From: Haliotis cracherodii
Lineage: Eukaryota
DNA: 64,000 nucleotides
Reading direction: 5' to 3'
Assembly (NCBI RefSeq): GCF_022045235.1
Contig: NW_027266266.1
Coordinates: forward strand, 4,953,848 to 5,017,847
The translations under genes were made by a program, and so were the position numbers. Shown here one piece after another: positions 23,076-60,947 of this stretch; positions within the stretch are counted from its first letter, which is position 1; each line of letters opens with the position of its first letter. The notes under the pieces were generated by a model that made no database searches, was not told the origin of the DNA, and saw only the letters and a program-made list of their open reading frames with translations.

Positions 23076-24620
23076 ACTAATACTTCAGATAATTAAGAGC
23101 TACGACAATATCCGTAAACTAGACAAAGACATTGAAATAGTTTGGAAACGAACATGCCGACAAAGCAGCTAAATCAGCACTTAAATTGGAAGAAGTAAGC
23201 ATCAACATTCCAATTGGTGAAAACGAAATTAAAAATACTACTAAGGAAAAAATCTTCCAAAAGTGGCAAAACAACTATCAGAAATCAAAATGCAAACTAA
23301 AACACATGCTACAAAAGCCCCTCCAAAAAAAAAAAAATCTATCATAAAACTAAAAGAATCGACAAGGCAATAATCAAATTACAAACAGGTCACACTAAAG
23401 TACTGTAGGACTATAACAAGAGCATATATCAAAATAACATTTGTGGGTATTGATTTACAGTTTGAGATAATTTCAGCCAGCTGTTCGAAGTCTTAGTCTG
23501 AACCTATTTTCTTAAAGCATGGATGTCGTAGCACTAATCAATCATTCGAGGTTGTTTATTACAGAATACTTCTCCAAAATATTTCTCATACATACTTTTC
23601 TCATTTACTTGATTTTTCTCATTTAAAGATTAAAATTCATTGAAACATAAAATTGAAAAAAAAAATTGTTTCGATAGTCAGCTATCAAAAGGAGCAAAAC
23701 AAGAAAACTTTTCCCGTTAAAGGAGTATGTGGTGAGGAGTTACCTCCCCTCTTTTATTGTCGTAACGTGCAAATGTACACATATAGAGAATCTCATCCGA
23801 GTGTCTTTTGATATCAAATATATCAACACGAGTTGATAAAAGTGCAAAAATTCCGATACCGCCGTCATATAGCTGGAATGTTGCTGAGTGTGGCGTTAAA
23901 CAACAAAAAGTTCATGTGAGCAATTGATTTTGTGAACAATTATGCTCGCGACGGGTGACACCGGTTGGGCAGGATACTGTTGCTTTCGGGAACACTTTAG
24001 TAGCTTCATCGCTTTTGATAGTGATTCATTAACACGTGCTTTGGATATAGTCGGAATCGTACCAAGGATTCTGCTTTTAGTATTTCTTGTGATTATTGAA
24101 ATGGTTTTGTCGCTTTCTATTGTAATAATAAGTATTCATACTGAATAATACGTGACATTGCAGCAAATAGTGTATAAATGGATAGGAAGATACATGCACC
24201 TACAACAATTAATCAGTTCCGATCATGAAAAGTTGAGACTTAACACACGCCGACCCAGAGGGAAGGGTGCAGGGGTGCACCCCTACTATTTGAAGCATGC
24301 TTGTCACGATAGCGTTTGGATGTGATCGATAAAAATAAATTGTCCCGTAAAATTCTTAAAAAGAATATTCAGGCTTCAGACTGTTGGAAAAAAACCTTGT
24401 TTTTTTAGTATTTAAAAAATCTTCAGGCTCATAGTTTTAAATTAAACATTATGTTTTTTGCATCTGTAACTGAAAATATCTTATTTATAGACACAATTCC
24501 AGCCCCACTCCAGAATAGGAAATGGTCGGCCCCTAATATGGTGAAAATATTGACCCTCCCTAATTATTGTCATATTTTTGGATGACCCTCCCCGTGTAAT
24601 TGTGCTTCTTTTCAGGAGAG

Positions 24621-24785
24621 GGGCGTCGGGTGGCCTAGTGGTTAAAACGTTAGCTCGTCACGCCGAAGACCCGGGTTCGATTCCCGACATGGGTACATTG
24701 TGTGAAGCCCATTTCTGGTGTGCCCCGCCGTGATATTGCTGGAACATTGCTAAAAGCGGCGTAAAACCATACTCACTCACTCACT
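24621..24785 (+). mobile_element. SINE family B copy
   Basis: target-site duplication ttttcaggagag at 24609-24620 and 24787-24798. Confidence 0.85.
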
Positions 24786-25031
24786 CTTTTCAGGAGAGCT
24801 TCGACGAAAAGCACTTTATGTTTTATTTTACAATGTCCATGACCCTCCCTAAATATGTATATTATATTCTAAGCCCTCCCCTAGTCGTATGATTTGGTGA
24901 GCCTCCCTTGCTTCCCTCTCTAATAAATGACCAGTGCCTTAAAGTTTGGCGGCCTACCTGCTTCACGTACACTTAGGCCCGACTTTACCGACTGAGAAAT
25001 CCATTATTTACATCCAGCCACAATGTCACAT

Positions 25032-26595: not shown

Positions 26596-27000
26596 CAGAG
26601 ATATTTTCCAAATATTTTAATGTTTTTAATCTTGGTGCTCATGGGGCGGTCGGGTAGCCTAGTGGTTAAAGCGTTTGCTCGTCACGCCGAAGACCCGGGT
26701 TCGATTCCCGACATTGGTACAATGTGTGAAGCCCATTTCTGGTGTACCCCGCCGTGATATTGCTGGAATATTGCTAAAAGCGGCGTAAAACCTCACTCAC
26801 TCACTTGGTGCTCATGTGATTTTATGCACTTCGCGAAGTAAGAACCGTTTATTACAATATAGATCTTGATTATCCATCAGATCGTCTTCACTGGGAGCCG
26901 CCATTTTGTTTGAAGCAAATGCAAGGGATATGAGGGGTGGAATCTGATTGGTCAATTGGAGGGACAAAGAACTCAAAGTACCAGATTGGCCCATGAGCCA
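26596..27000. mobile_element. MITE family 2 fragment carrying a nested SINE B
   Basis: 26815-26990 is about 80% similar to 15880-16060; 26600-26642 is similar to 15860-15895. Confidence 0.6.
26643..26805 (+). mobile_element. SINE family B nested in the MITE-2 fragment
   Basis: target-site duplication tggtgctcatg at 26632-26642 and 26806-26816. Confidence 0.85.
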
Positions 27001-27439
27001 CCGCCTTCTGGCGTAAGACTCTAGGCAATTTATTCAATCCAAAATTGAGAATTCACACATGTTATGCACGGCCAAGACCAAAATATACATTAAAATACAA
27101 CACAGGTGTGCATATACAATATTACGCACAGGGCCTGGCATGACCAGCCGATTGATAAGACCGGGCCCATCTTACCACCCGTCTGGGCGAAGTAAGGGTC
27201 GAAGTAGTGTGTTGGGCAAAGGAACACAGTTCCTAGAACCAGTGCCCTCAACTACCAGACTCCCGTCCTCCGCCGACACAGGGACGCAACCCACGGCAAA
27301 CGGGCTGCCCACTTTGGTCGCCTCTTACGACCAGCTATGGGGTGCTGTGGAAATATTCTACCCCGGTTCCACACGGGGGAAGAGCTATTAGCGCTACCCA
27401 GCACTCACCACGAGGAGGTTCCTCTTCACGAGTGCCGAC

Positions 27440-27985
27440 ACCACTGGGAACGAGGCACCAGTAGGTACTACACACCACTAGGGACGAGGCACCAGTAGGT
27501 ACTACACACCACTAGGGACGAGACACGAGTAAGTACTAGACACCACTAGGGACGAGGCACCAGTAGGTACTAGACACCACTAGGGACGAGGCACCAGTAG
27601 GTACTACACACCACTAGGGACGAGACACCAGTAGGTACTAGACACCACTAGGGACGAGGCACCAGTAGGTACTAGACACCACTAGGGACGAGGCACCAGT
27701 AGGTACTACACACCACTAGGGACGAGGCACCAGTAGGTACTAGACACCACTAGGAACGAGGCACCAGTAGGTACTAGACACCACTAGGGACGAGGCACCA
27801 GTAGATACTAGACACCACTAGGGACGAGGCACCAGTAGGTACTAGACACCACTAGGGACGAGGCACCAGTAAGTACTAGGCACTACTAGGGGCGAGGCAC
27901 TAGTTGGTACTAGACACCACAAGGGACGAGGCATCAGTAGGTACTAGACACCACTAGGTACGAGACACCAGACGGTACTAAATTC
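27440..27985. repeat. tandem repeat, 34-bp unit x about 16 (ccactagggacgaggcaccagtaggtactagaca)
   Basis: direct read. Confidence 0.9.
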
Positions 27986-30319: not shown

Positions 30320-32460
30320 TCCTTCATGACGGGTGTTCATGACCCATCATGAGGGGTTTATAGTGATCCCTATGATGGGATGGTGGGTGTTCATTGTGAT
30401 CCCTATCTGGGACGGTGGGTGTTCATTGTGATCCCTATCTGGGATGATGGGTGCTTATTGTGATCCCTATCTGGGACGGTGGGTATCCACCTTGATGGGT
30501 GTTCATTGTGATCCCTATCTGGGATGATGGGTGCTCATTGTGATCCCTCTCTGGGACGGTGGGTGTCCATCATGATGGGTGTTCATTTAGATCCCTATCT
30601 GGGATGGTGGATGTCCAACATGATGGGTGTTCATTGTGATCCCTATCTGGGACGGTGGGTGTCCACCTTGATGGGTGTTCATTGTGATCCCTATCTGGGA
30701 CGGTGGGTGTCCACCATGATGGGTGTTCATTGTGATCCCTATTTGGGACGATGGGTGTCCGTCATGACGGGTGTTCATTGTGATCCCTATCTGGGACGGT
30801 GGGTGTCCATCATGACGGATGTTCATTGTGATCCCTATCTGGGACGGTGGGTGTCCGTCATGACGGGTGTTCATTGTGATCCATATCTGGGACGGTGGGT
30901 GTCCACCATGATGGGTGTTGATTAGGATCCCTATCTGGGACAGTGGGTGTCCACCATGATGGGTGTTGTGATCCCTATCTGGGCACGGTGGGTGTCCGTC
31001 ATGATGGGTGTTCATTTAGATCACTATCTTGGGCAGTGGGTGACCATTATGACGGATGGATGTCCACCATGATGGGTGTTCATTGTGATCCCTATCTGGG
31101 ACGGTGGGTGTCCATCATGACGGATGTTCATTGTGATCCCTATCTGGGACGGTGGGTGTCCATCATGATGGGTGTTCATTGTGATCCCTATCTGGGACGG
31201 TGGATGTCCATCATGACGGATGTTCATTGTGATCCCTATCTGGGACGGTGGGTGTCCATCATGACAGATGTTCATTGTGATCCCTATCTGAGATGGTGGA
31301 TGTCCATCCTGACAGATGTTCATTGTGATCCCTATCTGAGACGGTGGGTGTCCATCATGACGGGTGTTCATTGTGATCCCTATCTGGGACAGTGGGTGTC
31401 CATCATGACGGGTGTTCATTGTGATCCCTATCTGAGACGGTGGGTGTCCACCATGATGGGTGTTCATTGTGATCCCAATCTGAGGCGGTGGGTGTCCATC
31501 ATGACGGGTGTTCATTGTGATCCCTATCTGAGACGGTGGGTGTCCATCATGACGGGTGTTCATTGAGATCCCTATCTGAGAGGGTGGGTGTCCACCATGA
31601 TGGGTGTTCATTGTGATCCTTATCTGAGACGGTGGGTGTCCATCATGAAGGGTGTTCATTGTGATCCCTATCTGAGAGGGTGGGTGTCCATCATGACAGG
31701 TGTTCACAGTGATCCCTATCTGGGACGGTGTATGTCTGTCATGATGGGTGTTCATTGTGATCCCTATCTGGGACGGTGGGTGTCCGTCATGTCAGGTGTT
31801 CATTGTGATCCCTATCTGGGATGGTGGGTGTCTGTCATGATGGGTGTTCATTGTGATCCCTATCTGGGACGATGGGTGTCCGTCATGACGGGTGTTCATT
31901 GTGATCCCTATCTGAGACGGTGGGTGTCCACCATGATGGGTGTTCATTGTGATCCTTATCTGAGACGGTGGGTGTCCATCATGACGGGTGTTCACAGTGA
32001 TCCCTATCTGAGACGGTGGGTGTCCATCATGACGGGTGTTCATTGTGATCCCTATCTGGGACGGTGGTTGTTCACCATGAAGGGTGTTCATTGTGATCCT
32101 TATCTGAGACGGTGGGTGTCCATCATGACGGGTGTTCATTGTGATCCCTATCTGGGATGGTTGGTGTCCACCATGACGGGGGTTTATTGTGATCCCTATC
32201 TGTGACAGTGGGTGTCAGTCATGACGGGTGTTTATTGTGATCCCTATCTGGGATGGTTGGTGTCCACCATGACGGGGGTTTATTGTGATCCCTATCTGTG
32301 ACAGTGGGTGTCAGTCATGACGGGTGTTTATTGTGATCCCTATCTGGGACAGTTAATGTCCACCATGATTGGTGTTCATTGTGATCCCTGTCTGGGATGA
32401 TGGGTGTTCATAGTGATCCCTATCTGAGATGGTGGGTGTCCATCACAACGGGTGTTTATT
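30320..32460. repeat. satellite, 60-bp unit x about 36 (ggtgggtgtccatcatgacgggtgttcattgtgatccctatctgggac)
   Basis: direct read; the unit resembles the adjacent 29-bp minisatellite; the long ORFs on both strands are artefacts of the 60-bp (3n) period. Confidence 0.9.
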
Positions 32461-33454
32461 AGAACTATGTAGTTATCTAATGACTCGGCACAACCAAACA
32501 CATAACAACTGGAAGGAATGATGTAAACATGTTTACTTTTTGATATTACCAGTGTATGAAAATAGGGGAAAGTTGGAATATGAATACAAAATAACTAGGC
32601 TGTGACAAAAATATATGCATACATTGGAGACTGGTGACACTAAAACATCTTAACAATGTGACGTTAGAAGGTCAATAAATGATATAAATAATGATGACAA
32701 TAATGATGAACTTAGTCACAAAATTCTGCTACACATCAGAAGATGGCAGACACATCACCTCACACACCAATAAATAATAGTATACAACAGTATATCTAAC
32801 ACATACATACATAAACAGTCCCATCTCAGGGGGCAAGGAACATGCCAATTCCAATCCTGACTGGGCACTAAATCATGGAGCATTGTTATAAACATAACAA
32901 GCAAACAGTATATATCTATTATACATATACAAGTCTTTGATAGGCATTTGAGGTCCTTCCATGTGTCAGACATCCAGTTGTCAGACACTGGAATATTTTG
33001 TAACTGCCAAACACCCCTTTACTCATAATGGAATGACCCAGATCTCTTTGCAGTTTTAAATGGCTTGGCTGAACTGTAACTATATTTGGTTTTTGAGATA
33101 GTGCAATTCCTGGATGCAGCAGGTTACATTCCAACTCTGGCTTGAATGGCTGACAGTACACTGACATTGATGTGGAAGTAAATGTTACTATTTCATAATG
33201 ATTGATGGTCAGTATATATCATGTATATGTTATGTATTATAGTTCATGTATACAATGTAAACCTCCTTTAACTGAGCAATATATTCCAAAGTATAAAGTA
33301 ATAATATATCAAGAATAAGTACTGATTTGTATAAATTTGGTTTCTTTTGTACCAGTTGTCAGACAGTTGTTGACGACAGGACTAGTCTATTTGGATTTAA
33401 GGGAATATATCACACACCTCATGTGCCCTCAACTATACAAGTTGTTTTAAGTTG

Positions 33455-34055
33455 TCTGACTAATGGGGTGTCTGACAAATGGGGTGTCTGACAAGTGGGG
33501 AGTCTGACAAATGAGGTGTCTGACAAATGGGGTGTCTGACAAATGAGGTGTGTGACAAATGAGGTGTCTGACAAATGAGGTGTCTGACAAATGGGGTGTC
33601 TGACAAATGGGGTGTCTGACAAATGGGTAGTCTGACAAATGAGGTGTGTGACAAATGGGGTGTCTGACAAATGAGGTGTCTGACAAATGGGGTGTCTGAA
33701 AAATGGGGTGTCTGACAAATGGGTAGTCTGACAAATGAGGTGTGTGACAAATGAGGTGTCTGACAAATGGGGTGTCTGACAATTGGGGTGTCTGACAAAT
33801 GAGGTGTCTGACAAATGGGGTGTCTGACAAATGAGGTGTCTGACAAATGGGGTGTCTGACAAATTGGTAGTCTGACAAATGAGGTGTCTGACAAATGAGG
33901 TGTCTGACAAATGGGGTGTCTGACAAATGAGGTGTCTGACAAATGGGGTGTCTGACAATTGGGGTGTCTGACAAATGGGGTGTCTGACAAATGGGGTGTC
34001 TGACAAATGAGGTGTCTGACAAATGGGGTGTCTGACAATTGGGGTGTCTGACAAA
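33455..34055. repeat. tandem repeat, 20-bp unit x about 30 (gtgtctgacaaatgRggt)
   Basis: direct read. Confidence 0.9.
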
Positions 34056-35002
34056 TGGAAGTGAACAGGCATATATATTAACATGATTAACATTATTAAC
34101 TCAATACAATTACTCAGTATTCACCTGAAGGAGTTCTGAAGTAGCTCTAAAACATTGCTACAAACAATAATAAAGTCATTATCCATAACAGTGTCATATG
34201 ATCCTGTACATACACAGCTGACAACTCTCATTAAGTACACTTTGCCCACATCCACACAACAGTATAGCTCCTTCATAAATCATAATTCAACTGAAGAACA
34301 AATCTGGAATAAAACAGTATTATTTAAACACATTCATGGGATTTTATCAAAAAGCAGTAAAACCTCTTCACAGCCATCAGCTACAAATATCATGGACGAA
34401 CAGTAACAAAACAAAGGAAGCATTGGATCCTGCTTCTGTTACAGACATTACTGAGACTTGGATGGTTGTTCAAACAGAATCAATAGCTATGTGGTTTAAT
34501 CCAATGCCTGCTTTTGTCACCACAGCCCTTCCTTTCCATGCACATCCCTGTTTCGATGGTTACCAGTGGATGGCTTGTCTACTTATAACTATTGTAAACT
34601 TAGAGACATGAAAGTCTTAATAAGGGAGCACCAATTTGATTTAGGGGGTGGGTCTGAGAACAATCTCTTTTTATCCTGCCTGTGACAAACTATTTATTTC
34701 CTAAGCACCATCAAACAATGCATTCATTTTCACTATTAACACAAAAAATGACGTTTGGATATTTTCCACAAAACAAGCTATTCATTTTTTTCACTAGTGC
34801 CAACAACCTTTTTATTTTGGGCATATTTATGGACTTTTCATTTTAAAAATCTTGCCACCCAACAACCCCCCGAAATAAAATGGATGCTCCCTAAACTAAA
34901 TCAGTTTTTGACTCTCTTTCATAAATATTTTTTTTTTTAAATCTAACAATAAACTTGATCTAAATTAGTAGCATGAGACTATTTTCAAGATGACTGAGCG
35001 AA

Positions 35003-35410: not shown

Positions 35411-35639
35411 TGAAAATGGTATTAATCCAGACTAGTACAAGCAGCCACACACATGCACATGTACCCGTACATGAATGCATGTAGCTACTTAAGTGCAATA
35501 ATCTTGAAAGCGAAGTTAAATCCCATTTCTTGCAACCTCATTTACCCTTTTGATAAGATTGGGAACTGGGACCTTTCTTTGAATCTCTCTCTGTGGAGAA
35601 GTCAATACACTTATGGTATTCCCTGTTCAATGAACAGTG

Positions 35640-35810
35640 CTAATGCAGCAAGTTAAGACCTTCATGGTGTTCCCCCGTGCAATGACAGGTGCACACTTAG
35701 CAAGTGAAGATGTTCATGGTGTTCCCCCATGCCATGAACGGTGCTCATACAGCAATGGTGCAATGAACAGTGCTCATGCAGCAAGTGAAGACGTTCTTGG
35801 TGCCCATGGG
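35640..35810. repeat. tandem repeat, about 48-bp unit x3.6; the KCTD-like CDS terminates inside the first unit
   Basis: direct read. Confidence 0.8.
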
Positions 35811-36514
35811 TAAAATATGATTTGCAACTTGTAGACAAATTTCTGACAGGTTTGTCCATAGTAATATTTACACTTCCGTTTACCCTCATGTGGCTTGACA
35901 TTGAATCCATCCTCCATGAGATCATTCTCCAGACATTTCATAAACACTTCTTCGTCAGCCTGTGTTTCCCATGGCCCAATACTAACATGAGCTGATTCCA
36001 CGATGCATCCGTGGAGGGGGTTAAAGTTCTGAACTTTCGCCTTGAACTCTGTTCTGAAAGCACATATCAACACTTCACCGATTCTGTTAACCGATGCATT
36101 AGCAACTGCTGCTTGGATGACGTCATGCTTGGCATCTTGGTACCCTGGAAACTGGGATCGATGGGATTTTTTTACGATAATAGAAGCAATTTCAGGTCGA
36201 AGCTGTAGCTTTTCGACCATGGAGTGTAGGCCATAGTACTCGGCATCTCTGTAGACAGCAGTGGATAAGTCTGACGGCGGAACTGTCCCATAGCGGAGGT
36301 ATTCCAGAATGTGGCCAAACACGGCACCGTTGGTGTCCAAGAAGTAGTGGCCATCCTTGTCTTGGTCAACCTTGTGACGGCCACTGAACATGGCCGCTAG
36401 CATGGAGTCCGAGTACTTCAAAAGCGTGGAGAGTCGTGTCTGGTACACCACCCCGCCAACATTCAGTGATATGATTGGTGGAAACTGCCCCAGTTTTACA
36501 ACATTGTCTCGTGG
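35774..36514 (-). CDS. BTB/POZ (T1-type) domain protein, TNFAIP1/KCTD10/KCTD13-like. Main coding exon (246 aa plus stop): PRDNVVKLGQFPPIISLNVGGVVYQTRLSTLLKYSDSMLAAMFSGRHKVDQDKDGHYFLDTNGAVFGHILEYLRYGTVPP...
   Basis: 741-nt open frame bounded upstream by the acceptor ttatttttcag|CCA (36515-36517); a BTB_2/K_tetra signature (LNVGG..Y.T...TL....DSML.AMFSGR...D..G..F.D..G..F..IL.YLR) is aligned from memory to KCTD10/KCTD13/TNFAIP1. Confidence 0.8.
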   Translation of the reverse strand, partial: PRDNVVKLGQFPPIISLNVGGVVYQTRLSTLLKYSDSMLAAMFSGRHKVDQDKDGHYFLDTNGAVFGHILEYLRYGTVPPSDLSTAVYRDAEYYGLHSMVEKLQLRPEIASIIVKKSHRSQFPGYQDAKHDVIQAAVANASVNRIGEVLICAFRTEFKAKVQNFNPLHGCIVESAHVSIGPWETQADEEVFMKCLENDLMEDGFNVKPHEGKRKCKYYYGQTCQKFVYKLQIIFYPWAPRTSSLAA

Positions 36515-37672
36515 CTGAAAAATAAATAATCTGCAAGTGACATAGCGTGAGCAAATTAAACTTTAACGTCACATCAGCATTATTTCAGCCATAGAGCAAC
36601 GCCGGTGACATAGAAATTTGCAAGTTTTGTATAACCCACTGCCCCAGCATTTGAAGAAGTTACTGAGATTGACAAGCAGGGAATTAGTTGGGATTTTATC
36701 ATCAATTGATGTCCCTGTCACACTTAGCACTAAAGTTTAAAATTTGAGCATCCCCAGATTCAAACAAGGACAGGAAAACTTTGTTCGTTTTTCTTAAATT
36801 TTTCAAAACTGACTAGGTTGGTAGGGAAGACTTTTTTATTTCATTGTATTTCTGATTACAAATCTATAAAAGTAAACTGGATTCAAATGTGCTGCCCACT
36901 GCGGCCTGATCGAGTATGAAAGTATGAGGCACCGAGGTCATGGCGACCTCAGCCATGTTCTCCTGCAGTTCTGACATACCTTCAGTTCAAAATGTACTCT
37001 GTGGCCCAAAAATCAAAATTCTGCTTCCAATTTTTGTAAATTCTGCAACCAAAATTTTATAATGTCTGCAAACTTTTAAACTTTGTTTTCATGAATTTCG
37101 TAGTTTTGCAACTGTTGGACCTGTGGAAGCATTTTTTGTATAAACTTATCTGTGGCTAGAATAGCTCACTGAAGTGAATCTGGTGATCTGGGTTTTGCTA
37201 AGAAATGATACAATAGTCAACTTGACTTTAAAATGAAACTGATTCAATTAACCATTTATCAAAACGTAAAATGTTCAAAAGATCCATTTATAAACTCTTT
37301 TTTTCTTTTTTTTCCCGTAGAAAACAAACACATTATATAATTATTTGGAGTGATTTAATGAATTAAAACAATGCACAATTCAAATAATGACTTCGTTTCA
37401 GTAAACCTATGCAACTTTTACTCGTGTTATTTTCTGCAACAGCGGTACATTTCTGCACGGAGTTGGCATTTCTGCAAATTATTGAACTCAGCAGGGACAA
37501 CGGGACACTATGAGTGGGTCAAGTATGAACATAATTTGTATTCCTGGTGCATGTGAGCTGAAAAAAATTGTTTCTGTACTATATTTTCAGTGATTAAATA
37601 TATTTTAAATATGTATATATAATATGTTTTTTATCAAGCCTAATATACAGATAATACAGCATCAATCCCCAC

Positions 37673-37858
37673 CTGAACACCTGGCTGTCGGGGCATGGAG
37701 TCTGTGTGAGACTGTTCGTATCCTTCCCTGACATGCGTGATGAAAGGATGCTTCGCCCTTGGAACAGGCCTTGGTGCGATTTCTCGTATTGAAATATTTT
37801 CCTCAACGGAAGAATCGTCTTCATCTGTCATTTTCAACATTTCTTCAGATATGTACAT
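37673..37858 (-). CDS. candidate first coding exon of the KCTD-like gene (62 aa): MYISEEMLKMTDEDDSSVEENISIREIAPRPVPRAKHPFITHVREGYEQSHTDSMPRQPGVQ, donor |gtgggg
   Basis: an ATG-initiated ORF ending at a phase-0 CAG|gt donor that joins in frame to the phase-0 acceptor at 36514; the combined length of 308 aa is typical for KCTD10/13; no independent homology. Confidence 0.3.
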
Positions 37859-37959
37859 GTTTTGACATGCTGATGTGTTGTCTCCCTTCCCAACAAATTT
37901 AGCAAGCTCTTCCCCAGCGCGTGACACCTTACCCTCGGTAACTTATTATGGAGAGCTAG

Positions 37960-38026
37960 GCGAACGGGCTATCGCTGTGAGGAGCTTGCATAGTTAGCAA
38001 GGTCCTCACAGCGATAGCCCGTTCGC
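37960..38026. repeat. 67-bp near-perfect palindrome: 24-bp arms gcgaacgggctatcgctgtgagga with a 19-bp spacer that is itself palindromic
   Basis: 37960-37983 is the reverse complement of 38003-38026; about 100 bp upstream (transcript sense) of the candidate KCTD exon 1. Confidence 0.8.
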
Positions 38027-38845
38027 GGAGCTCTCTAGCCGGTTCGCTGGGAAGGATCGAGCTTGCATATTTAGACGTAGACTAGTTTCATAATTACTGG
38101 TATTTCATTATTTTGAGACACAGAACTACTGCCGATATAGGAACAAATATCGCCTTCCATTTCACACAAGCACAAACATATTTCCATTATTTAAAGATGA
38201 TCGTTTTAGTAGTCAAGCAACTACATCAAAATTATTTAAAACTGTATTGCAATCTCAGGTACTCGTACTACATGTATCACAAAGGCCAGTTAAGCCGTTA
38301 AACAACAATGGCGAATGCCCGGGTTCTATTCCCACATGGGTACAATGTGTGAAGCATTCCCGAAGCATGCATGGCTTCTGTTTCTCCAACCTCAGCAGTG
38401 TCCTAAATGCATCCCTGCCAAATCTGTCATGTCTGTTGAATGCCACACCGATATTATTTGGGTCTCAACAGACGCCTATTCTTTTCTACAATCCAGTTCA
38501 TCTTCCCAAACAGGTGAGATATCACTCTCAGCTTCAGTCTCAACTCAAATGGCCACAACGCCTATGCCAACAATATGGCACCAGCGCCTATGCCAACATT
38601 GGCACCAGAGCCAGAACTAGCATCACCACCAGCCTCTGTTAAAAGTGCAAACAAAAACGTTGACTGCGCAATAAAAAAACAAGATCGTGTACCAAAGGGT
38701 CACCGTGACCCTATTCAAATATATAATCGGTATCAAACTTTGGAGGACATGGATGTCTCTCCACATTCCCAAGTAAGTCGCCTCGAAATGGGACAAATAG
38801 ATCTCCTGTTCACCCACCCGTAACATGAACATTTCCACTCCACTA

Positions 38846-41800
38846 GTTCAGTGGAATTGCAGAGGTCTTCGAACCAATTTTAACGAGTTACAACTTTTAA
38901 TACAAGAGTTTACGCCATCAGAAATCTGTCTTCAAGAGACGTATCTCTAACAGACCGAAACCTTTTTGCGTCGGTACAGTTCTTATCATTCATTTTCTCG
39001 GCCAGGTGTTAAATCTACTGGATGATCCACTGTTTTGGTGAAGCAGGACGTGATCCACAGCCCTGTTTCACTTCAAACTCATCTTCAAGCTGTTGCAGTG
39101 CGACTAACTTTACACATAACCTTTACACTGAGTTCTCTGTATAGTTTCTCCCTCCTCTGTGCTTCAGAGATCGGATCTTCAAGCCTTATATGATCAGTTC
39201 CCTAAGCCCTGCATGATCATGGGTGACTTTAACGGATATAACCCATTATGGGGAAGTGTTAAAGTTAATGTTAAGGGGGAAGTACTTGAAGATCTTATTC
39301 CGATAACAATTTATGCATTTTCAATGATGGGTCTGTCACATCTGTCACTAACAGATTCAAATCTATTAAACAAATTTACTTGGTCGGTCCACGATGACTT
39401 GTGTGGATGCGACCATTTTCCTACAATATTAACAGCAAATGATCCATCTGGTGGAATTACTTTAGGATTAACACCTGATATGTTCAGGACTGTTACCGAC
39501 CCTTTTCAATCGTTTTCGGATAAGCTGAATGAAATTGCTCATATAACCATTCCTAAGTCCTCTGCAAATCCACACATTTGAAAACCATGGTTTAATAAAG
39601 AGTGCAAACAGAATAGTAAGTGCAGGAAAAAAGCGTAGAAATATTTCCGCAAATATCGAACTGTACACAATTTAAATCATGTTAAAAACACAAATGTCAT
39701 GGCAAGCCGTACATTCAAACAGAATAAGCGTAAGTCCTTGAGGAATTTTGTCACTAAAATTAATTCTCGCACACCAATATCCAAGGTGTGGAACACGATT
39801 GCAAAATTAAAGGCAAAGTATCAAAATCGAGCGTCCACCATCTCAAGGAAGGTGACCATTCTGTTAACAGATAAATTGGATATTGCTAATAAATTGGGCG
39901 AAACGCTGGCCAAACACTCTTCATCATCGAACTATGATGCTAAGTTTCAAAAATATCAGAAACAACAGGAAAAGAAGAGGTTTGGTTTTATTTCGGTAAA
40001 TGGAGAAGATTACAATGAGGTATTTTCGCTCCACCAGCTAAATACTGCCCAAGGTCAAGCGCACGATACTGCAGCGAGAGTGGATAATATTCACTATCAG
40101 CCTGAAGCATTTGCCTGATTCATGTTTAGAGACACGTCTTGATATATTTGATCGGATCACGACGTCAGGAGATTTTCCTCCATCGTGGCGTAATGCAATA
40201 GTTTTTTCCCATACCTAAACCTGGTAGGGACCATACTTTTGCATCTAATTATAGACCAATATCACCAACCAGCTGTGTGTGCAAAACCAAGGGAACGAAT
40301 AGTAAATAATCGGCTGGTGTGGTACTTGGAAACCAACAATATCTTAGCTAACATTCAGTGTGGTTTCCGTCAAATAGAAGTACCATTAACCATCTGGTAC
40401 GTTCAGAATCGTTTGTCAAAAATGCCGTTGTAAATAATCAGCATGCATTATCAATCTTTTTTTTATTTAGTAAAAAGCGTATGATACCACATGGAAGCAT
40501 GGTATTTTAAAAGATCTACATGATTTGGGATTAAGAGCTTGTCCGCCTCAATATATATCCCTTTCTTTAACAGACCGACATTTTCATGTTCGTGTGGGTT
40601 CCACCCTGTGTGACCATTATAATCAGGATCAGGGTGTCCCACCAGGCTGTATTTTGTCGGTGACTCTGTTTAGCATAAAGATTGATAGTCTGTCAAAGGT
40701 TTTAAATGATTCAATTGATGGTTCCCTTTTTGTGGACGATGTTAATATTCCATGTCGTGGCAAAAATATGCATACCATCGAGAGACAGTTGCAGCTGTGT
40801 CTCAATAAAATCCCAAAATGGTGTCTTGAAAATGGTTTTAATTTTTCAAAAGCTAAGACCAATTGTAGTCATTTGTGTAGGAAATACAAGCACCACAAGG
40901 ATCCAGAAGTATTTTTACATGGCACTCCTATCAAGGCTGTAGAAGAGTCCAAGTTCCTGGGTCTCATTTTCGATCATCATTTGACTCTTGAGCCACATAT
41001 TAATTATCTCAAAACTAAATGCCTGAAGGCTCGAGATTTGTTGAAAGTTGTTGCTGATACAAAGTGGGGAGGTGATCAGACAAGCCTCCTCCACTTGTAT
41101 AGGTCTCTGATCCGCTCTAAATTAGATTATGGCTCCATCGTTTATGGTGGAGCCTGTAAGAGCAATTTACACAAATTAGATTCAAGTCACCACCAGGGCC
41201 TAAGATTATGTCTTGGCGCATTTCGAACATCTCCCGTGGATAGCCAATACGTAATGTAGAAGCTGATGAACCATCTTTGAATCAACGGCGCTTTGAATCA
41301 AATTATCGCTTCAATACATTACAAAATTACATTCTAACCCATTAAACCCTGCTTACAAATGTGTTTTTGAACCCCTTTACGACGAACTTTTTCACAGTAA
41401 GTCTAAGCTCCACTAGGAATACGAATTAAACCCCACAGTACAGCTGCCAATATTGATTTAGATAATATTTCTCCTGTCAGTCTTTAATCTTCAACTTCTT
41501 GGCAACTTATCAGACCGGGAGTAGTCTTTACTTACACATTTTTAAAAATCAGACACAAATAATATATCAACAAGAATATATACAAGTTAGAACTAAATAT
41601 GAATCCCACCATTCTATTTTTAAAGATGGATCCAAGGATGGTGGCAGTCTCCAGTGCTGCTGTTATTATGCCGCATCATCCCGATTACCAGACCATAGCT
41701 CAATTTTTACTGCTGAAGCCAAGGCCATTTCAAAGGCTTTAGAATATATTCAAAAACAATCTAGCTGCAAAGGGTTTATCATCTTGTCAGATTCACTAGA

Positions 41801-42544
41801 TTGTCTACAGGCAATAAAAACGAACTCTTCAAGTCATCCATTCATTTAAGTTATTTTAGAATTATACAATGAACTTGCAACTGGCCAATACATCGTCTTT
41901 TGCTGGTTGCCCAGTCATGTTGGAATTGCAGGTAACACTATGGCTGATACATTTTGATAATACGCATTGTAAAAAGTAAGTGATTTCAATTTAGCAGAAT
42001 GATTATATAACTATGATTGTTAGTGGCTGTACCTTCAAAAGGAGTTGAAGTAACGTAAAATAATTGTCCCCCTGAAAGGGTACGTTAGTCCCAATACATT
42101 CAAAGTATGTTTCATTTTCCATGGTTTTAATCGTAGAATAATTGTAGGTTTTAAATCTTTCTAACAATCATCAGTAGCCAGAGGAATGGTGGAAATCCTG
42201 GTACCAAGCAGGAAGCAGATGTACCGTAAGTCCCCATGGTCCGTAGTATGGTGCGACTATGCTTGTCGTAAAACTAACCAACCAACCAACCGTAGTATGG
42301 TGGTCTAACTTTGGTTGCTGATGATCCATAGCCCATTTGTATAGTGTATCGTTATTTGTAGTTACATTTTTATGGTTACATGCTAGTTTTAAATCTATCT
42401 CTGTATTAATATAATCCTTTTACCGTCCCTCGTCAACAGATTTTATAGTCTATAATTATGTATAATTACTGCACAACTTGATTTAGTCACGTTATGGCTG
42501 CAATATTGCCGATGTGACTATAAATCTAAACTCACTCACTCACC
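38846..42544 (+). mobile_element. non-LTR retrotransposon (LINE), 5'-truncated and frameshifted. Contains an APE endonuclease (VQWNCRGLRTNFNELQLL..ICLQETYL; ..IMGDFNGYNPLWGS), a reverse transcriptase (..FVDDVNIPCRGKN..; 40525-41259), an RNase H (..IFTAEAKAISKALEYI..IILSDSLDCLQAIK; ..CWLPSHVGIAGNTMAD), a roughly 600-bp 3' UTR, and a tail ending (ctca)n
   Basis: domain motifs read from the ORFs at 38846-38950, 39159-39581, 40525-41259 and 41499-41960; the 3' UTR matches 5261-5806. Confidence 0.85.
42254..42289 (-). mobile_element. 36-bp SINE family A tail fragment (cgactatgcttgtcgtaaaactaaccaaccaaccaa) inserted in the LINE 3' UTR
   Basis: perfect 13-bp target-site duplication ccgtagtatggtg at 42241-42253 and 42290-42302. 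Confidence 0.75.
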
Positions 42545-42643
42545 TGTTTGGTGCACACAGTTTACTAAAGCGCCACACAGCGTTATTGTCTCCCATGTCA
42601 GAATCAAGTACTTCAGTGGCTCTCATCGGGCAAGGGGGCGGGC

Positions 42644-42785
42644 GGGTAGCCTGGTGGTTAAAGCGTTCGCTCGACACTCCGAAGTTCCGGGTGCAATGTC
42701 CGAAGCCCATTTCTGGTGTCCCACGCCTTGATATTACTAGAATATCGCTAAAAGCAGCGTAAAACCATACTGACTCACTCACTCA
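42644..42785 (+). mobile_element. SINE family B copy
   Basis: target-site duplication catcKggcaagg flanking the insertion. Confidence 0.75.
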
Positions 42786-42964: not shown

Positions 42965-44166
42965 ACTATCTAGTCGTCACTTTCGTTGGGATTTACTATC
43001 TAGTCGTCACTATCGTTGGGATTTACTATCTAGTCGTCACTTTCGTTGGGATTTTCTATCTAGTCGTCACTATCGTTGGGATTTACTATCTAGTTGTCAC
43101 TATCGTTCGGATTTACGATCTAGTCGTCACTATCGTTGGGAATTACGATCTAGTCGTCACTATCGTTGGGATTTACTATCTAGTCGTCCCTTTCGTTGGG
43201 ATTTACTATTTAGTCGTCACTATCGTTGGGATTTACCATCTGGTCGTTACTATCGTTGGGATTTACTATCTGGTCGTCACTATCGTTGGGATTTACTATT
43301 TAGTCGTCACTATCGTTGGGATTTACTATTTAGTCGTCACTATCGTTGGGATTTTCTTTTTAGTCGTCACTATCGTTGAGATATACTATTAGGTCGTCAC
43401 TATTGTTGGGATTTACTATTTAGTCATCACTATCGTTGGGATTTACTATTTAGTCGTCACTATCGTTGGGATTTACTATTTAGTCGTCACTATCGTTGGG
43501 ATTTACTATTTAGTCATCACTATCGTTGGGATTTACTATTTAGTCGTCACTATCGTTGGGATTTACTATTTATTCATCACTATCGTTGGGATTTTACTAT
43601 CTAGTCGTCACTATCGTTGGGATTAACTTTTGAGTCAGCACTATCTTTGGATTTACTTTTTAGTCCTCATTATCATTAGGATTTACTATTTAGTCATCAC
43701 TATCGTTGGGATTTACTATTTAGTCGTCACTATCGTTGAGATTTACTATTTAGTCGTCACTATCGTTGGGATTCACTATTTAGTCATCACTATCGTTGGG
43801 ATTTACTATTTAGTCGTCACTATCGTTGGGATTTACTATTTAGTCATCACTATCGTTGGGATTTTACTATCTAGTCGTCACTATCGTTGGGATTAACTTT
43901 TGAGTCAGCACTATCTTTGGATTTACTTTTTAGTCCTCATTATCATTAGGATTTACTATTTAGTCGTCACTATCGCTGGGATTTACTATTTAGTCGTCGC
44001 TATCCTTGGGATTTACTATTTAGTCGTCACTATCGTTGAGATTTACTATTTAGTCGTCGCTATCCTTGGGATTTACTATTTAGTAGTCGCTATCCTTTGG
44101 ATTTACTATTTAGTCGTCACTATCGTTGGGATTTACTATTTAGTCATGACTATCACTGGGATTTAG
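42965..44166. repeat. satellite, 30-bp unit x about 40 (ctagtcgtcactatcgttgggatttactat), with a roughly 270-bp higher-order repeat (43600-43870 matches 43870-44140)
   Basis: direct read; variant units gattaacttttgagtcagcactatctttgg recur 270 bp apart. Confidence 0.9.
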
Positions 44167-46959: not shown

Positions 46960-47104
46960 TTATAGGTGGCTGCTGCGGAGCCAGGTTTCCAGGTTCGAGA
47001 TCTGTTTCTCCACGCTCGACTTGGCGGTTCCTCCGTACGCTGTGTACTGGTCCACCGAGTTCTCATAGTTCCACACATTGGCCACATCACTCTCGAACAG
47101 TGGG
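46960..47104 (-). CDS. ASL: argininosuccinate lyase, last coding exon (S)[47 protein letters not shown]
   Basis: aligns with the human ASL C-terminus ..[39 protein letters not shown].. (recalled from memory); acceptor cag| at 47105-47107. Confidence 0.9.
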
Positions 47105-47310
47105 CTGCCGGTACAAACGGAGTGAATGAGTGACATGGAATTTGAACTGCTTTTACAGTGACAAATAATGTCAAATTGAGAACACCACAAACCTGGGCAT
47201 TCAACATTTTGAGCAATATTGCTTTAACCACTTGACTACCCCACCACCCCTTCAATGGAACAAGTCATGCAGAACTAATTCAGAAACAGCTACGGTCGTT
47301 TCGGTCGTTT

Positions 47311-47468
47311 GCTGTTTAACGCCACACTCAGTAGTATTCCAGCTATATGACGGCGGTCTGTAAATAATCGAGTCTGGACCACACAATCCAGTGATGGATA
47401 TCATGAGCATCAATCCACACAATTAGGATACGATGACATGTATCAACCAAGTCAGCGAGCCTGACCAC
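47311..47468 (-). mobile_element. SINE family A copy in an ASL intron
   Basis: family A similarity. Confidence 0.7.
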
Positions 47469-47636
47469 AATAGCTTTTGGACTCCACTATGACATCAAAT
47501 GATATAGTTCTGATCATGCAAACATGCCTACTTTAAATGCTCTGAAATATATTGGAATTATTACATGACGGAGATCTACACATCAACGTGCTGGCCGCGA
47601 CCCTCGGGGACGGCTCACTTCACTTTAGTGCTCTAC

Positions 47637-47743
47637 CTGACAGTCTTGAGGTCTTCCAAGAGGAGCTTCTCCATGACGCAGCCCTTCCTCTCCGCCAGCG
47701 CCACACAGCCGCCAGCCAATGAGTGGGCCTCACGGAACGGAAC
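47637..47743 (-). CDS. ASL: ASL exon: VPFREAHSLAGGCVALAERKGCVMEKLLLEDLKTV(S)
   Basis: matches human [29 protein letters not shown]; acceptor tttccctgtgcag|, donor |gtagag. Confidence 0.9.
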
Positions 47744-48249
47744 CTGCACAGGGAAACACAGAATCTCACCCAAGTGTCGAAAAACTATTTCTTTGTCATG
47801 TCCCTGAACAGGCTTTGTGATTACAATACTTCACTGTATTTCAAAAGTTATCCAGTATATCTCAATTAAGTTTTAAGTCTTGTACCGTTAATCCGACATG
47901 GTTGATTACATATGATTACGTTGGATTAACGAGTATGTCGGATAAATGAAATTAAGTAGAATCAATGTTCATGATGGAAAATCGGACAACTACATGATAG
48001 ATAATGTTGTAATAAAAAAAGGAAAAAGAAATATTCAAATTGTTGTATTACATTGTCAGCGGAATGTGTTTTTTGTAATCATGTAACCTCTAAAGTTCAA
48101 CACAAAACAACTGTTACGGGCTGTATGAGTGATTGAAAATACTTTTAAAAGCATAGTCTGGAATGGAAGTCATCAGTATGGAACTTGTGCCGCAATGCTT
48201 AAGAAAGCTGCTTTCTTATTGGCTAATGTCAAGGTCATTATGATGTGAC

Positions 48250-52661: not shown

Positions 52662-53760
<1,099 letters not shown>

Positions 53761-54115: not shown

Positions 54116-54223
54116 TTGATAAACACACTTTTTGCTTATTACTATGCATCAGTGAATCTGACAAAACTACTGATGAATCATTCCATTCCGACAAAACTAC
54201 TGACTGAATCATAATTTTGAAAC

Positions 54224-55603
54224 AAAGCTCCACTATTGCTACAACACTGATCCATACTGACCTGTATGCGTCCGAGAGCGTGACAAAGCTCCACTACTGC
54301 TACAACACTGATCCATACTGACCTGTATGCGTCCGAGAGCGTGACAAAGCTCCACTACTGCTACAACACTGATCCATACTGACCTGTATGCGTTCGAGAG
54401 CGTGACAAAGCTCCACTATTGCTACAACACTGATCCATTCTGACCTGTATGCGTCCGAGAGTGTGACAAAGCTCCACTATTGCTACAACACTGATCTATT
54501 CTGACCTGTATGCGTCCGAGAGTGTGACAAAGCTCCACTATTGCTACAACACTGATCCATACTGACCTGTATGCGTCCGAGGGTGTGACAAAGCTCCACT
54601 ATTGCTACAACACTGATCCATACTGACCTGTATGCGTCTGAGAGTGTGACAAAGCTCCGGTATTGCTACAACACTGATCCATACTGACCTGTATGCGTCC
54701 GAGAGTGTGACAAAGCTCCACTATTGCTACAACACTGATCCATACTGACCTGTATGCGTCCGAGAGTGTGACAAAGCTCCACTATTGCTACAGCACTGAT
54801 CCTTTCTGACCTGTATGCGTCCGAGAGCGTGACAAAGCTCCACTATTGCTACAACACTGATCCATACTGACCTGTATGCGTCCGAGAGTGTGACAAAGCT
54901 CCGCTATTGCTACAACACTGATCCATACTGACCTGTATGCGTCCGAGAGCGTGACAAAGCTCCACTACTGCTACAACACTGATCCATACTGACCTGTATG
55001 CGTCCGAGAGCGTGACAAAGCTCCACTACTGCTACAACACTGATCCATACTGACCTGTATGCGTTCGAGAGCGTGACAAAGCTCCACTATTGCTACAACA
55101 CTGATCCATTCTGACCTGTATGCGTCCGAGAGTGTGACAAAGCTCCGCTATTGCTACAACACTGATCCATTCTGACCTGTATGCGTCCGAGAGTGTGACA
55201 AAGCTCCACTATTGCTACAACACTGATCCATACTGACCTGTATGCATCCGAGGGTGTGACAAAGCTCCACTATTGCTACAACACTGATCCATACTGACCT
55301 GTATGCGTCCGAGAGTGTGACAAAGCTCCGCTATTGCTACAACACTGATCCATACTGACCTGTATGCGTCCGAGAGTGTGACAAAGCTCCACTATTGCTA
55401 CAACACTGATCCATACTGACCTGTATGCGTCCGAGAGTGTGACAAAGCTCCACTATTGCTACAATACTGATCCATTCTGACCTGTATGCGTCCGAGAGTG
55501 TGACAAAGCTCGACTATTGCTACAACACTGATCCATTCTGACCTGTATGCGTCCGAGAGCGTGACAAAGCTCCACTAATGCTACAACACTGATCCATACT
55601 GAC
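54224..55603. repeat. minisatellite, 60-bp unit x about 23; each unit is the last 29 nt of the ASL exon at 55604-55718 plus the first 31 nt of the intron
   Basis: unit ctgtatgcgtccgagagYgtgacaaagctccactaYtgctacaacactgatccatactgac versus the exon end ctgtatgcgtccgagagcgtgacaaagct|GAACTCC. Confidence 0.9.
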
Positions 55604-55718
55604 CTGTATGCGTCCGAGAGCGTGACAAAGCTGAACTCCTTGGTGGAGTAGAGGATGAGGTCCTCCGCCCAGCGGCTGAGGTGAGTGCTGAGCAGTGACG
55701 CCCAGAACAGAAACTCCA
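55604..55718 (-). CDS. ASL: ASL exon: (V)[37 protein letters not shown](S)
   Basis: matches human [39 protein letters not shown]; acceptor tgtttcag|, donor AG|gtcagt. Confidence 0.9.
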
Positions 55719-60792: not shown

Positions 60793-60947
60793 GACTTGGC
60801 CCTGTTGAGGATGACGCTGATGAAGTCGGTGAGGTAAGTGCGGAGCTGCAGCTGGGCGTCTCTCATCCACAGCCTCATGTCGGTGGCCACCTGGTCATTG
60901 CGGCTCCGGCCCGTGTGCAGCTTGCCTCCTGCTGCACCGATCAACTC
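60793..60947 (-). CDS. ASL: ASL exon: [51 protein letters not shown](S)
   Basis: matches human [30 protein letters not shown]....LLWELIRTMVDRAEAE; acceptor tgtttcag|, donor TC|gtgagt. Confidence 0.9.

Follow-up and report, generated by a model that had tools for sequence, protein, structure and literature searches.

The window analyzed here, a stretch of 64,000 nucleotides from the black abalone Haliotis cracherodii, carries on its minus strand what is very probably a derived paralogue of abalone KCTD7, marked by a history of two deletions and still maintained. A cluster look-up returned two KCTD7-like proteins in H. rufescens and two in H. cracherodii: a canonical copy, hereafter copy A, which ends in ...IIFD* (XP_046337859.2 in H. 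rufescens and XP_071092920.1 in H. cracherodii), and a derived one, hereafter copy B, which is the gene of the window. As a gene, it holds nothing new: judged by its sequence, it is the already annotated black-abalone KCTD7-type ubiquitin-ligase adaptor, catalogued as KCTD7-like, and the biology of KCTD7, a pentameric BTB adaptor that recruits Cullin-3 and the EPM3/CLN14 epilepsy gene, is established. Its value is modest and appears to lie in offering a clean and datable case of a fresh duplicate surviving gross structural damage, in which the loss of a splice donor was answered by a usable donor on the deletion junction and the loss of a stop codon by 12 codons and a stop supplied by a minisatellite, both repairs being conserved across a speciation event.

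The existence of the two-exon gene is confirmed (table 1). On the minus strand, 36514-35774 translates into 246 amino acids followed by TGA and 37858-37673 into 62 amino acids, and the spliced 302-aa product starting at 37840 was found by exact-sequence look-up to be identical to RefSeq XP_071092921.1, “KCTD7-like,” of H. cracherodii, RefSeq XP_ models being predictions. RefSeq models of the two H. rufescens paralogues splice at the same acceptor as the window gene, ttatttatttttcag|CCA (36515/36514), and exon 1, which terminates in phase 0 at CAG|GTGGGG (37673|37672), joins exon 2 in frame. The H. rufescens copy A protein (P0001) matches 37831-37673 at 92% identity in tblastn, and the protein encoded by exon 2 is 98% identical to H. 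rufescens copy A across 234 residues. An initial annotation, made from the letters of the window alone, had already read much of this structure: the 246-aa exon that it described is reproduced by translation, with its T1/BTB domain recovered by Pfam as BTB_2 (E 3.8e-15), the acceptor that it called clean is the one shared by the two paralogues, and the upstream open reading frame that it proposed as exon 1, through the junction 37673|36514, is joined identically in the RefSeq model. Of its 308-aa protein, however, only the exon join stands firmly, the start at 37858 being uncertain: RefSeq starts at 37840 (MLKM), the ATG at 37858 is in frame in H. cracherodii only and forms a 4-codon out-of-frame uORF in H. 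rufescens copy B, and the sole start common to copy B, copy A, and the outgroups or other Haliotis is at 37831 (MTDEDD). Neither the 308-aa nor the 299-aa start variant has an exact entry in the protein collection searched.

Table 1. Features of the copy B locus, in positions of the window (L001, locus sequence of H. rufescens copy A; L003, locus sequence of H. rufescens copy B).
Feature	Positions	Strand	Basis
Copy B-specific insertion, 168 bp	37903..38069	-	Absent from copy A (L001 9937-9941), present in L003 9784-9945
Exon 1, coding part, MLKMTDEDD...PRQPGVQ, 56 codons	37673..37840	-	RefSeq XP_071092921.1
5' deletion junction with 6-base filler TTCAGG	37672..37677	-	blastn blocks and junction alignment against copy A
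Intron, 1,158 nt, GT...AG	36515..37672	-	Aligns to L001 12633-13829 and L003 10225-11306
Exon 2, coding part, 246 codons and TGA at 35776-35774	35774..36514	-	Translation, homology
T1-type BTB domain (Pfam BTB_2), carrying M94, R102, H103, and Y149	36215..36472	-	Pfam, KCTD7 alignment
KCTD C-terminal domain (Pfam PF25611)	35828..36175	-	Pfam E 4.1e-22, AF2/Foldseek match
Tail YPWAPRTSSLAA and stop, in place of ancestral D and TGA	35774..35812	-	Comparison with copy A
52-bp minisatellite	35599..35809	-	TRF period 52

Sequence searches and a predicted structure both designate KCTD7 as the closest relative of the encoded protein among solved KCTDs. Besides BTB_2 (PF02214, residues 15-100 of the 246-aa exon), Pfam recognizes KCTD_C (PF25611, residues 114-229), and these matches are far beyond chance. 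When the full-length protein is compared with the PDB (phmmer), the best match is KCTD7 (127.5 bits, E 6e-36, residues 10-233), which covers both domains, whereas KCTD10 and KCTD13, for which the PDB contains BTB domains only and alongside which KCTD14 is absent, score at most 55.4 bits and over the BTB only. The C-terminal domain alone matches KCTD7 as the sole KCTD of the PDB, but weakly (E 0.0098), so that the support for this domain comes from Pfam and from the fold match. The AF2 monomer model has a mean pLDDT of 75.7, mostly above 90 in both domains, with helices 153-194 linking the BTB to the C-terminal domain, and its top Foldseek match is KCTD7 (8i79, E 2e-19, the next match being at 6e-10), with 228 columns aligned to the cryo-EM chain 8i79_A across both domains and a TM of 0.77 normalised to the target. 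In the phmmer alignment, M94, R102, H103, and Y149 (302-aa numbering) are the equivalents of KCTD7 M76, R84, H85, and Y131, which are Cul3-contact residues whose mutation impairs Cul3 binding (PMC10348674); three of them, M94, R102, and Y149, are invariant in a 27-sequence alignment, and the M76 position is altered in Cul3 non-binders such as KCTD14 (PMC10348674).

The likeness to vertebrate KCTD7 thus extends to the succession of BTB_2, helical linker, and KCTD C-terminal domain, to the Cul3-contact residues, and to an acidic disordered N-terminus of about 50-65 residues, although identity in the structural alignment is only about 32%, and vertebrate KCTD7 ends in ...WW whereas the mollusc proteins end in ...FD. 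In invertebrates, the gene is probably a co-orthologue of both KCTD7 and KCTD14. The last residue of mammalian KCTD7 is gripped at the contact between subunits (PMC10348674); at that place, the window copy carries a 12-residue tail. This YPWAPRTSSLAA ending, which replaces the terminal D, departs from the KCTD7-type ending right after the last beta-strand, found in copy A and in the other mollusc orthologues; it is a departure of copy B and does not exclude the protein from the KCTD7 family.

From the perspective of the two paralogues, copy A is the one that occupies the ancestral locus and keeps the canonical ends, and its neighbor there is a Y_phosphatase3 gene, an arrangement also seen in H. 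rubra. In H. rufescens, copy B is inverted relative to copy A and about 139 kb away from it, beside an argininosuccinate-lyase gene; apart from the gene itself, the homology of copy B to copy A is limited to about 280 bp upstream and several kb downstream. Collinearity between the window and H. rufescens copy B extends over 21 kb. The two copies share their acceptor, their intron phase, and a homologous downstream 52-bp array, but exon 1 of copy A extends 15 residues further (ARSLPSSPHTGVNHIS region) to a native donor, and copy A has a 3.6-kb intron and 4.2 kb from its stop to the array. We considered whether the differences between the window and L001 were species-specific deletions in one orthologue, and rejected this on the grounds that each species has two paralogues and that L003 is collinear with the window. 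The divergences identify copy B as a young duplicate: dS of A or B against H. rubra is about 0.39-0.40 and that of A against B about 0.08-0.10, and intron divergence is about 10% between A and B and about 6% between the B copies of the two species, which share the same state at 70 intron sites, vs 33 and 33 for the other two patterns. A literature search on KCTD7 in abalone found nothing relevant.

On the 5' side, copy A has 2,478 bp (L001 10155-12632) where the window has the filler TTCAGG; the lost sequence comprised the last 15 ancestral codons of exon 1, the native donor TCG|GTGCGT, and a 5' portion of the intron. CAG|GT, the donor that replaces the native one, lies on the deletion junction itself, its GT at 37672-37671 straddling it, and the same CAG|GTGGGG is found in H. 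rufescens copy B. The segment missing from the N-terminal linker is a Ser/Pro-rich stretch of 15 residues in copy A. A tblastn search (word size 2, E 10) found no mini-exon encoding RSLPSSPHTGVNHIS in the window intron, and the idea of a missing mini-exon was rejected, as the locus comparison puts this segment in exon 1 of copy A and shows it to be deleted in the window copy.

A second junction, on the 3' side at 35813|35812, shows microhomology (TCAT(A)TTT) and marks the loss of 4,221 bp that copy A retains (L001 14532-18752), namely its last codon, its stop, and downstream DNA. As this deletion removes the stop, translation continues for 12 codons into the first unit of the minisatellite. 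The junction and the stop are identical in H. rufescens copy B, and the tail has 12 residues in both species, with W/L as the sole difference; among 24 other full-length orthologues aligned, all but one read-through model end 0-1 residue past ...IIF. AF2 predicts the tail to be disordered (pLDDT below 50 for residues 294-302). The array starts with a divergent unit 1 (35809-35758), followed by a partial 29-bp unit (35757-35729), two full units (35728-35677 and 35676-35625), and a degenerate remnant that reaches about 35599, for a total of about 4 units. The homologous array of H. rufescens copy B counts 10 units and that of copy A 8. The initial annotation had located the stop in the first unit of a 48-bp array of 3.6 units, with the last 9 or so codons inside the repeat: the stop does fall in unit 1, and codons do fall in the repeat, but there are 11 of them, and the period is 52. 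A true 48-bp array exists separately in the window, at 30524-32411, and is unrelated to the gene. The first AATAAA, at 34816, occurs 957 nt past the stop, which weighs against a maintained copy B, as does the reduced and interrupted upstream DNA described below.

On this basis, KCTD7 was duplicated, and both deletions struck copy B before H. cracherodii and H. rufescens split. The 5' step, in one or more events, removed the 15 codons together with the native donor, and the new phase-0 donor on the junction restores the frame; the 3' step was a microhomology-flanked deletion, after which the reading frame enters unit 1 of a minisatellite that was already there and reaches its TGA. Copy B may well be a still working Cul3 adaptor, with a disordered N-terminal linker 15 residues shorter and a new, putatively disordered C-terminal tail, and purifying selection, possibly aided by conversion from copy A, would keep it intact.

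An altogether different reading, that of the initial annotation, had seen in this gene a TNFAIP1/KCTD10/KCTD13 (BACURD) protein whose C-terminus may have been remodelled by the repeat, taken here to mean that the array reshapes it by gaining or losing units. BACURD1-3 indeed have a T1-type BTB with a ...MFSGR... motif and a Cul3 adaptor role, the BTB of the window protein does find both KCTD10 and KCTD13 (E about 1e-13 to 1e-14), and the stop codon truly lies within an array unit. Yet the BTB alone (96 residues) scores 100.7 bits against KCTD7 vs 56.8 against KCTD10 and 53.1 against KCTD13, no similarity to BACURDs was detected outside the BTB, their only domain represented in the PDB, KCTD7 is the only solved KCTD to match the C-terminal domain, and every named homologue is KCTD7-like, so that the homology searches, which the annotation had itself named as able to refute it, put the protein with KCTD7, as do Foldseek and the Cul3-contact residues; in an AlphaFold-based clustering, KCTD7/14 and KCTD10/13/TNFAIP1 fall in separate clusters (PMC8699099). 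For readings made free of annotation, the lesson is that ...AMFSGR... is not diagnostic of the BACURD subfamily. As for the C-terminus, it is lineage-specific, as had been suspected, but a 4.2-kb deletion next to a pre-existing array, rather than the repeat, accounts for its remodelling: unit 1, with the tail and stop, has orthologues at copy A and at H. rufescens copy B, the array predates the fusion, the stop sits in this stable first unit, upstream of the variable part of the array, and protein length does not follow copy number, the tail being equally long at about 4 and about 10 units. We give this reading next to no credence. It is likewise most improbable that assembly produced copy B by misjoining or collapsing a haplotype of a single KCTD7 gene, with deletions that are mere errors, even if abalone genomes are described as highly heterozygous and rich in structural variants, and even if the region is full of minisatellites. 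Indeed, two species with independent assemblies each have both copies annotated, the window and H. rufescens copy B have identical junctions, the H. rufescens copies are 139 kb apart, inverted, and flanked by different neighbors, and the introns of A and B diverge by about 10%.

The rival that bears directly on the maintenance of copy B is that of a non-functional or decaying duplicate, whose reading frame would look healthy through repeated conversion from a constrained copy A. In favor of this are both deletions and the truncated upstream homology, the gene having lost its native donor, its stop, its 3' region, and most of its promoter. Moreover, exon 2 is a mosaic: 6 of its sites ally the A and B copies of H. 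rufescens, and 3 ally the two B copies. Between these H. rufescens paralogues, exon 2 has just 3 synonymous differences (dS 0.02), with a dN/dS of 0.66-0.78; changes private to copy B of that species comprise 4 that are nonsynonymous and 1 that is synonymous; and 10 residues differ between the copy B proteins of the two species, vs 1 for copy A. From the grouping of sites in particular, the integrity of the reading frame could owe something to conversion, which confounds any inference of maintenance. However, the junction donor, the 12-codon tail, its TGA, and the MLKM start are beyond repair from copy A, and these B-specific parts are intact and in frame in both species despite the divergence of their introns. 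Similarly, four B-specific changes (I->N, R->P, M->V, and E->K) persist in both species, and conversion has therefore not been wholesale. In exon 2, the window copy has 6 private substitutions at third codon positions and 1 that is nonsynonymous. The two B orthologues, compared with each other, show a dN/dS of 0.17 (Fisher p 5.5e-5), and indel events number 23 in 1,127 intron columns vs 0 in 702 exon-2 columns, the B lineage having undergone 12 intron indel events after speciation. Taken together, the intact reading frame, the indel-free exon 2, and the low dN/dS argue for the maintenance of copy B, and we consider decay masked by conversion to be unlikely.

Beyond maintenance, one may wonder whether copy B has been neofunctionalised into an abalone-specific modulator of a Cul3 ligase, a possibility that we hold to be quite doubtful. 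If this were the case, the 12-residue tail could alter the stability of the pentamer or allow co-assembly with copy A, the loss of the 15-residue linker stretch could add to this effect, and two deletions would at once have created a splice donor and turned minisatellite DNA into coding sequence.

Upstream of the gene, the copy B-specific insertion lies 45-210 bp from the coding start, in the 5'UTR or promoter region, and includes a near-perfect palindrome of about 85 bp; it splits the approximately 280 bp of ancestral upstream DNA left in copy B, which abut a dead LINE.

From its sequence, the minus-strand locus in the window appears to be a real gene, previously annotated in RefSeq. A pyrimidine tract and a CAG lead into its exon 2, in whose product Pfam recognises BTB_2, a T1-type BTB domain (E 3.8e-15), and PF25611, a KCTD C-terminal domain (E 4.1e-22). 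The exon 1 ORF closes in phase 0 (CAG|GTGGGG), which keeps the join 37673|36514 put forward by the initial annotation in frame. An exact-sequence look-up found the 302-aa model that starts at the second ATG (37840; MLKMTDEDD...) to be XP_071092921.1, [quoted passage not shown], so that this junction and the in-repeat stop, which had likewise been proposed, are already those of the RefSeq model and black abalone is the most likely source of the window; the same look-up returned no exact match in the protein collection for the 308-aa (start 37858) and 299-aa (start 37831) variants. The repeat is a 52-bp array, to which a consensus scan adds a divergent first unit, with the final 11 codons and the stop codon inside it. 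It had been described as 3.6 units of 48 bp, when the unit is in fact 52 bp and is present about four times; a true 48-bp array lies elsewhere in the window (30524-32411).

Features of the window and of the two H. rufescens loci
Feature	Position	Strand	Details
Exon 2 ORF	36514-35774	minus	246 codons, TGA end
Upstream ORF (exon 1)	37858-37673	minus	62 codons, begins MYISEEMLKMTDEDD
52-bp array	35628-35755		TRF
Divergent first unit of 52-bp array	35809-35758		consensus scan
Out-of-frame upstream ATG	37885-37862	minus	7-codon uORF ATGTCAAAACATGTACATATCTGA, overlaps ATG at 37858
Copy B-only insertion, 168 bp	37903-38069		45-210 bp upstream of coding start
Frameshifted non-LTR retrotransposon (LINE)	~38825-41900	plus	divergently upstream of gene; RVT_1 match at 40525-41259
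Argininosuccinate-lyase gene, 3' end (by orthology)	~47000-47900 and beyond	minus	Lyase_1/ASL_C2
Long minisatellites	27437-27980; 30524-32411; 33453-34058; 42965-44165; 52662-53656; 54222-55632; 60927-62005		
SINE-like repeat, ~165 bp	2724-2888; 24619-24793; 26641-26805; 42635-42781		dispersed
Copy A, H. rufescens	JALGQA010000021.1 2,424,792-2,429,328	plus	neighbour Y_phosphatase3 gene
Copy B, H. rufescens	JALGQA010000021.1 2,568,304-2,570,353	minus	neighbour argininosuccinate-lyase gene

The initial annotation assigned the protein to the BACURD group (TNFAIP1/KCTD10/KCTD13), an identity refuted by the criterion set out with it, as phmmer, Foldseek and the homologue search all point to KCTD7. 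A search with the 308-aa model retrieved KCTD7-like proteins only, the best matches being from Haliotis. With phmmer against the PDB, the full exon-2 product matched KCTD7 over both domains (query residues 10-233, E 6e-36, 127.5 bits) and KCTD10/KCTD13 over the BTB only (E ~1e-13, at most 55 bits), and the BTB alone scored 100.7 bits with KCTD7 versus 56.8 with KCTD10 and 53.1 with KCTD13. An AlphaFold2 model from a 27-sequence alignment (mean pLDDT 75.7, both domains mostly above 90, below 50 at residues 1-63 and 294-302 of the 302-aa product) gave in Foldseek against the PDB the KCTD7 structure 8i79_A as top match (E 2e-19, TM 0.77 normalised to target, 228 columns), the second-best match of any kind having an E of 6e-10. 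In an AlphaFold-based survey, KCTD7/KCTD14 form a cluster separate from that of KCTD10/KCTD13/TNFAIP1 (PMC8699099). Mutagenesis in the 8i79 paper showed that Cul3 binding by KCTD7 needs M76, Y131, R84 and H85, and that Cul3 non-binders, KCTD14 among them, differ at M76 (PMC10348674). In the phmmer alignment, the 302-aa product has M94, R102, H103 and Y149 opposite M76, R84, H85 and Y131, and the conserved methionine would favour the Cul3-binding KCTD7 type over KCTD14. Domain architecture, fold and Cul3-contact residues are shown to be those of a KCTD7-type adaptor; by analogy with the family (PMC10348674), we infer that the product may form a pentamer, its BTB ring binding Cul3 and its C-terminal ring presenting substrates.

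A 90%-identity cluster contains two proteins each in H. rufescens and H. cracherodii, namely a canonical copy A (XP_046337859.2, XP_071092920.1) and a derived copy B (XP_046353831.2 and the product of the window). Copy A starts with MTDEDD, closes exon 1 with ...QPGARSLPSSPHTGVNHIS|PRDN and ends in ...IIFD*, as do H. rubra, H. asinina and other molluscs at this end in the 27-sequence alignment, whereas copy B starts with MLKMTDEDD, closes exon 1 with ...QPG(V/G)Q|PRDN and ends in ...IIFYP(W/L)APRTSSLAA*, which bears out the suggestion of a lineage-specific C-terminus. Among the annotated proteins of H. rubra and H. asinina there is none of the B type. The Y_phosphatase3 neighbour of copy A is also found in H. 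rubra, so that copy A occupies the ancestral locus. Collinearity of the window with the copy B locus of H. rufescens (L003) extends from ~26.8 to 47.9 kb; against copy A, the window matches only across the gene itself, the ~280 bp ahead of the start and several kb on the downstream side. In H. rufescens, the argininosuccinate-lyase gene that is situated upstream of copy B lies at L003 1-1552. As to H. rubra, its RefSeq protein XP_046548988.1 has an aberrant N-terminus (MLCHQAPCRFSAATDRCSF...), and tblastn finds the canonical exon 1 in two frames at 10412-10617 of the locus (L002), with a break at ~10573 that would point to a one-base assembly indel or a real frameshift.

Compared with the H. 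rufescens copy A locus (L001), two deletions lie behind the odd ends of copy B. On the 5' side, window 37700-37678 aligns with L001 10132-10154 and window 37671-37615 with L001 12633-12678, six bases (TTCAGG) replacing 2,478 bp of copy A, a stretch with the last 15 exon 1 codons, the native TCG|GTGCGT donor and the initial 2.4 kb of intron sequence; the present donor CAG|GT straddles the junction. On the 3' side, window 35840-35813 perfectly matches L001 14504-14531 up to ...ATATTT, where copy A continues with GAT TGA, and the counterpart of window 35820-35757 is L001 18746-18808, unit 1 of the 52-bp array; in copy A, 4.2 kb separate the stop from this downstream array. Here 4,221 bp are missing, with the overlap TCAT(A)TTT as junctional microhomology, and the fusion of ORF and array adds 12 codons into unit 1, ending at the unit's own TGA. 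Donor, junction and stop are shared with H. rufescens copy B, so both deletions are older than the species split.

On this basis, the C-terminus of copy B is explained by a deletion that recruited the first array unit as coding sequence and stop, and not by repeat dynamics as initially proposed: the array has ~4 units in the window, 10 in H. rufescens copy B and 8 in copy A, yet the tail of copy B keeps a constant length. Mammalian KCTD7 ends in W289, a residue held between R184 and R183 of the adjacent subunit, and its mutation is pathogenic (PMC10348674). In copy B, a changed last residue and an 11-residue disordered extension fall at this sensitive position, where they may affect assembly. 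The finding is ordinary in kind and adds a neat evolutionary anecdote.

In the intron, both B copies agree against copy A at 70 sites and each has 33 private ones (divergence ~6.3% B-B, ~9.8% A-B). The low dS between the window and copy A (0.08-0.10), relative to ~0.39-0.40 to H. rubra, makes the duplication recent, and it is probably restricted to north-east Pacific abalones as a lineage. The B orthologues have a dN/dS of 0.17 over 284 codons (Fisher p 5.5e-5), and private exon-2 changes of the window copy comprise six at third codon positions and one nonsynonymous. Indel events number 23 in 1,127 intron columns and none in 702 exon 2 columns; 12 of the 23 are post-speciation in the B lineages, predicting ~7.5 in the exon. 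However, the H. rufescens copies speak against a simple selection story, A and B differing at only three synonymous sites of exon 2 (dS 0.02, dN/dS 0.66-0.78) and copy B having four nonsynonymous private changes and one synonymous. The dS between B orthologues is 0.085 versus 0.02 between these paralogues, and the derived sites of exon 2 (36514-35813 versus L001 and L003) form a mosaic, six joining H. rufescens A and B and three joining both B copies, a pattern suggestive of interlocus gene conversion restricted to the coding exon. Ten residues distinguish the copy B proteins of the two species, and one residue the copy A proteins. The B-specific elements are intact in both species although copy A offers no template for their repair, which is the strongest reason to think that copy B is itself maintained.

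The codon preceding AAA ATG ACA is ATA in copy A and H. rubra and ATG in copy B, hence MLKM. Of the two B copies, only that of the window has the ATG at 37858 in frame, one extra base in H. rufescens turning its equivalent into a 4-codon uORF, and the choice of ATG depends on the transcription start. The window also has a uORF that matters only if transcription begins further upstream. Copy B has a short upstream region, abutted by a LINE (endonuclease-like start MNISTPLVQWNCRGL...; RVT_1, E 1.6e-11) that also occurs at the H. rufescens copy B locus. Its 168-bp insertion, single-copy within the window, is found at L003 9784-9945 and has no counterpart at L001 9937-9941; with a near-perfect palindrome of ~85 bp (predicted hairpin ~-103 kcal/mol), it may represent a MITE-like element or act as a foldback on the 5'UTR/promoter. 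Past the stop, the nearest AATAAA is 957 nt downstream. The SINE-like repeat recurs at L001 8255-8419 and 18050-18214 and in L002. The window is unusually rich in long minisatellites (periods 34, 48/144, 16, 30, 32, 61 and 74 bp; up to ~40 copies), several of which are homologous, with differing copy number, to H. rufescens arrays downstream of copies A and B.
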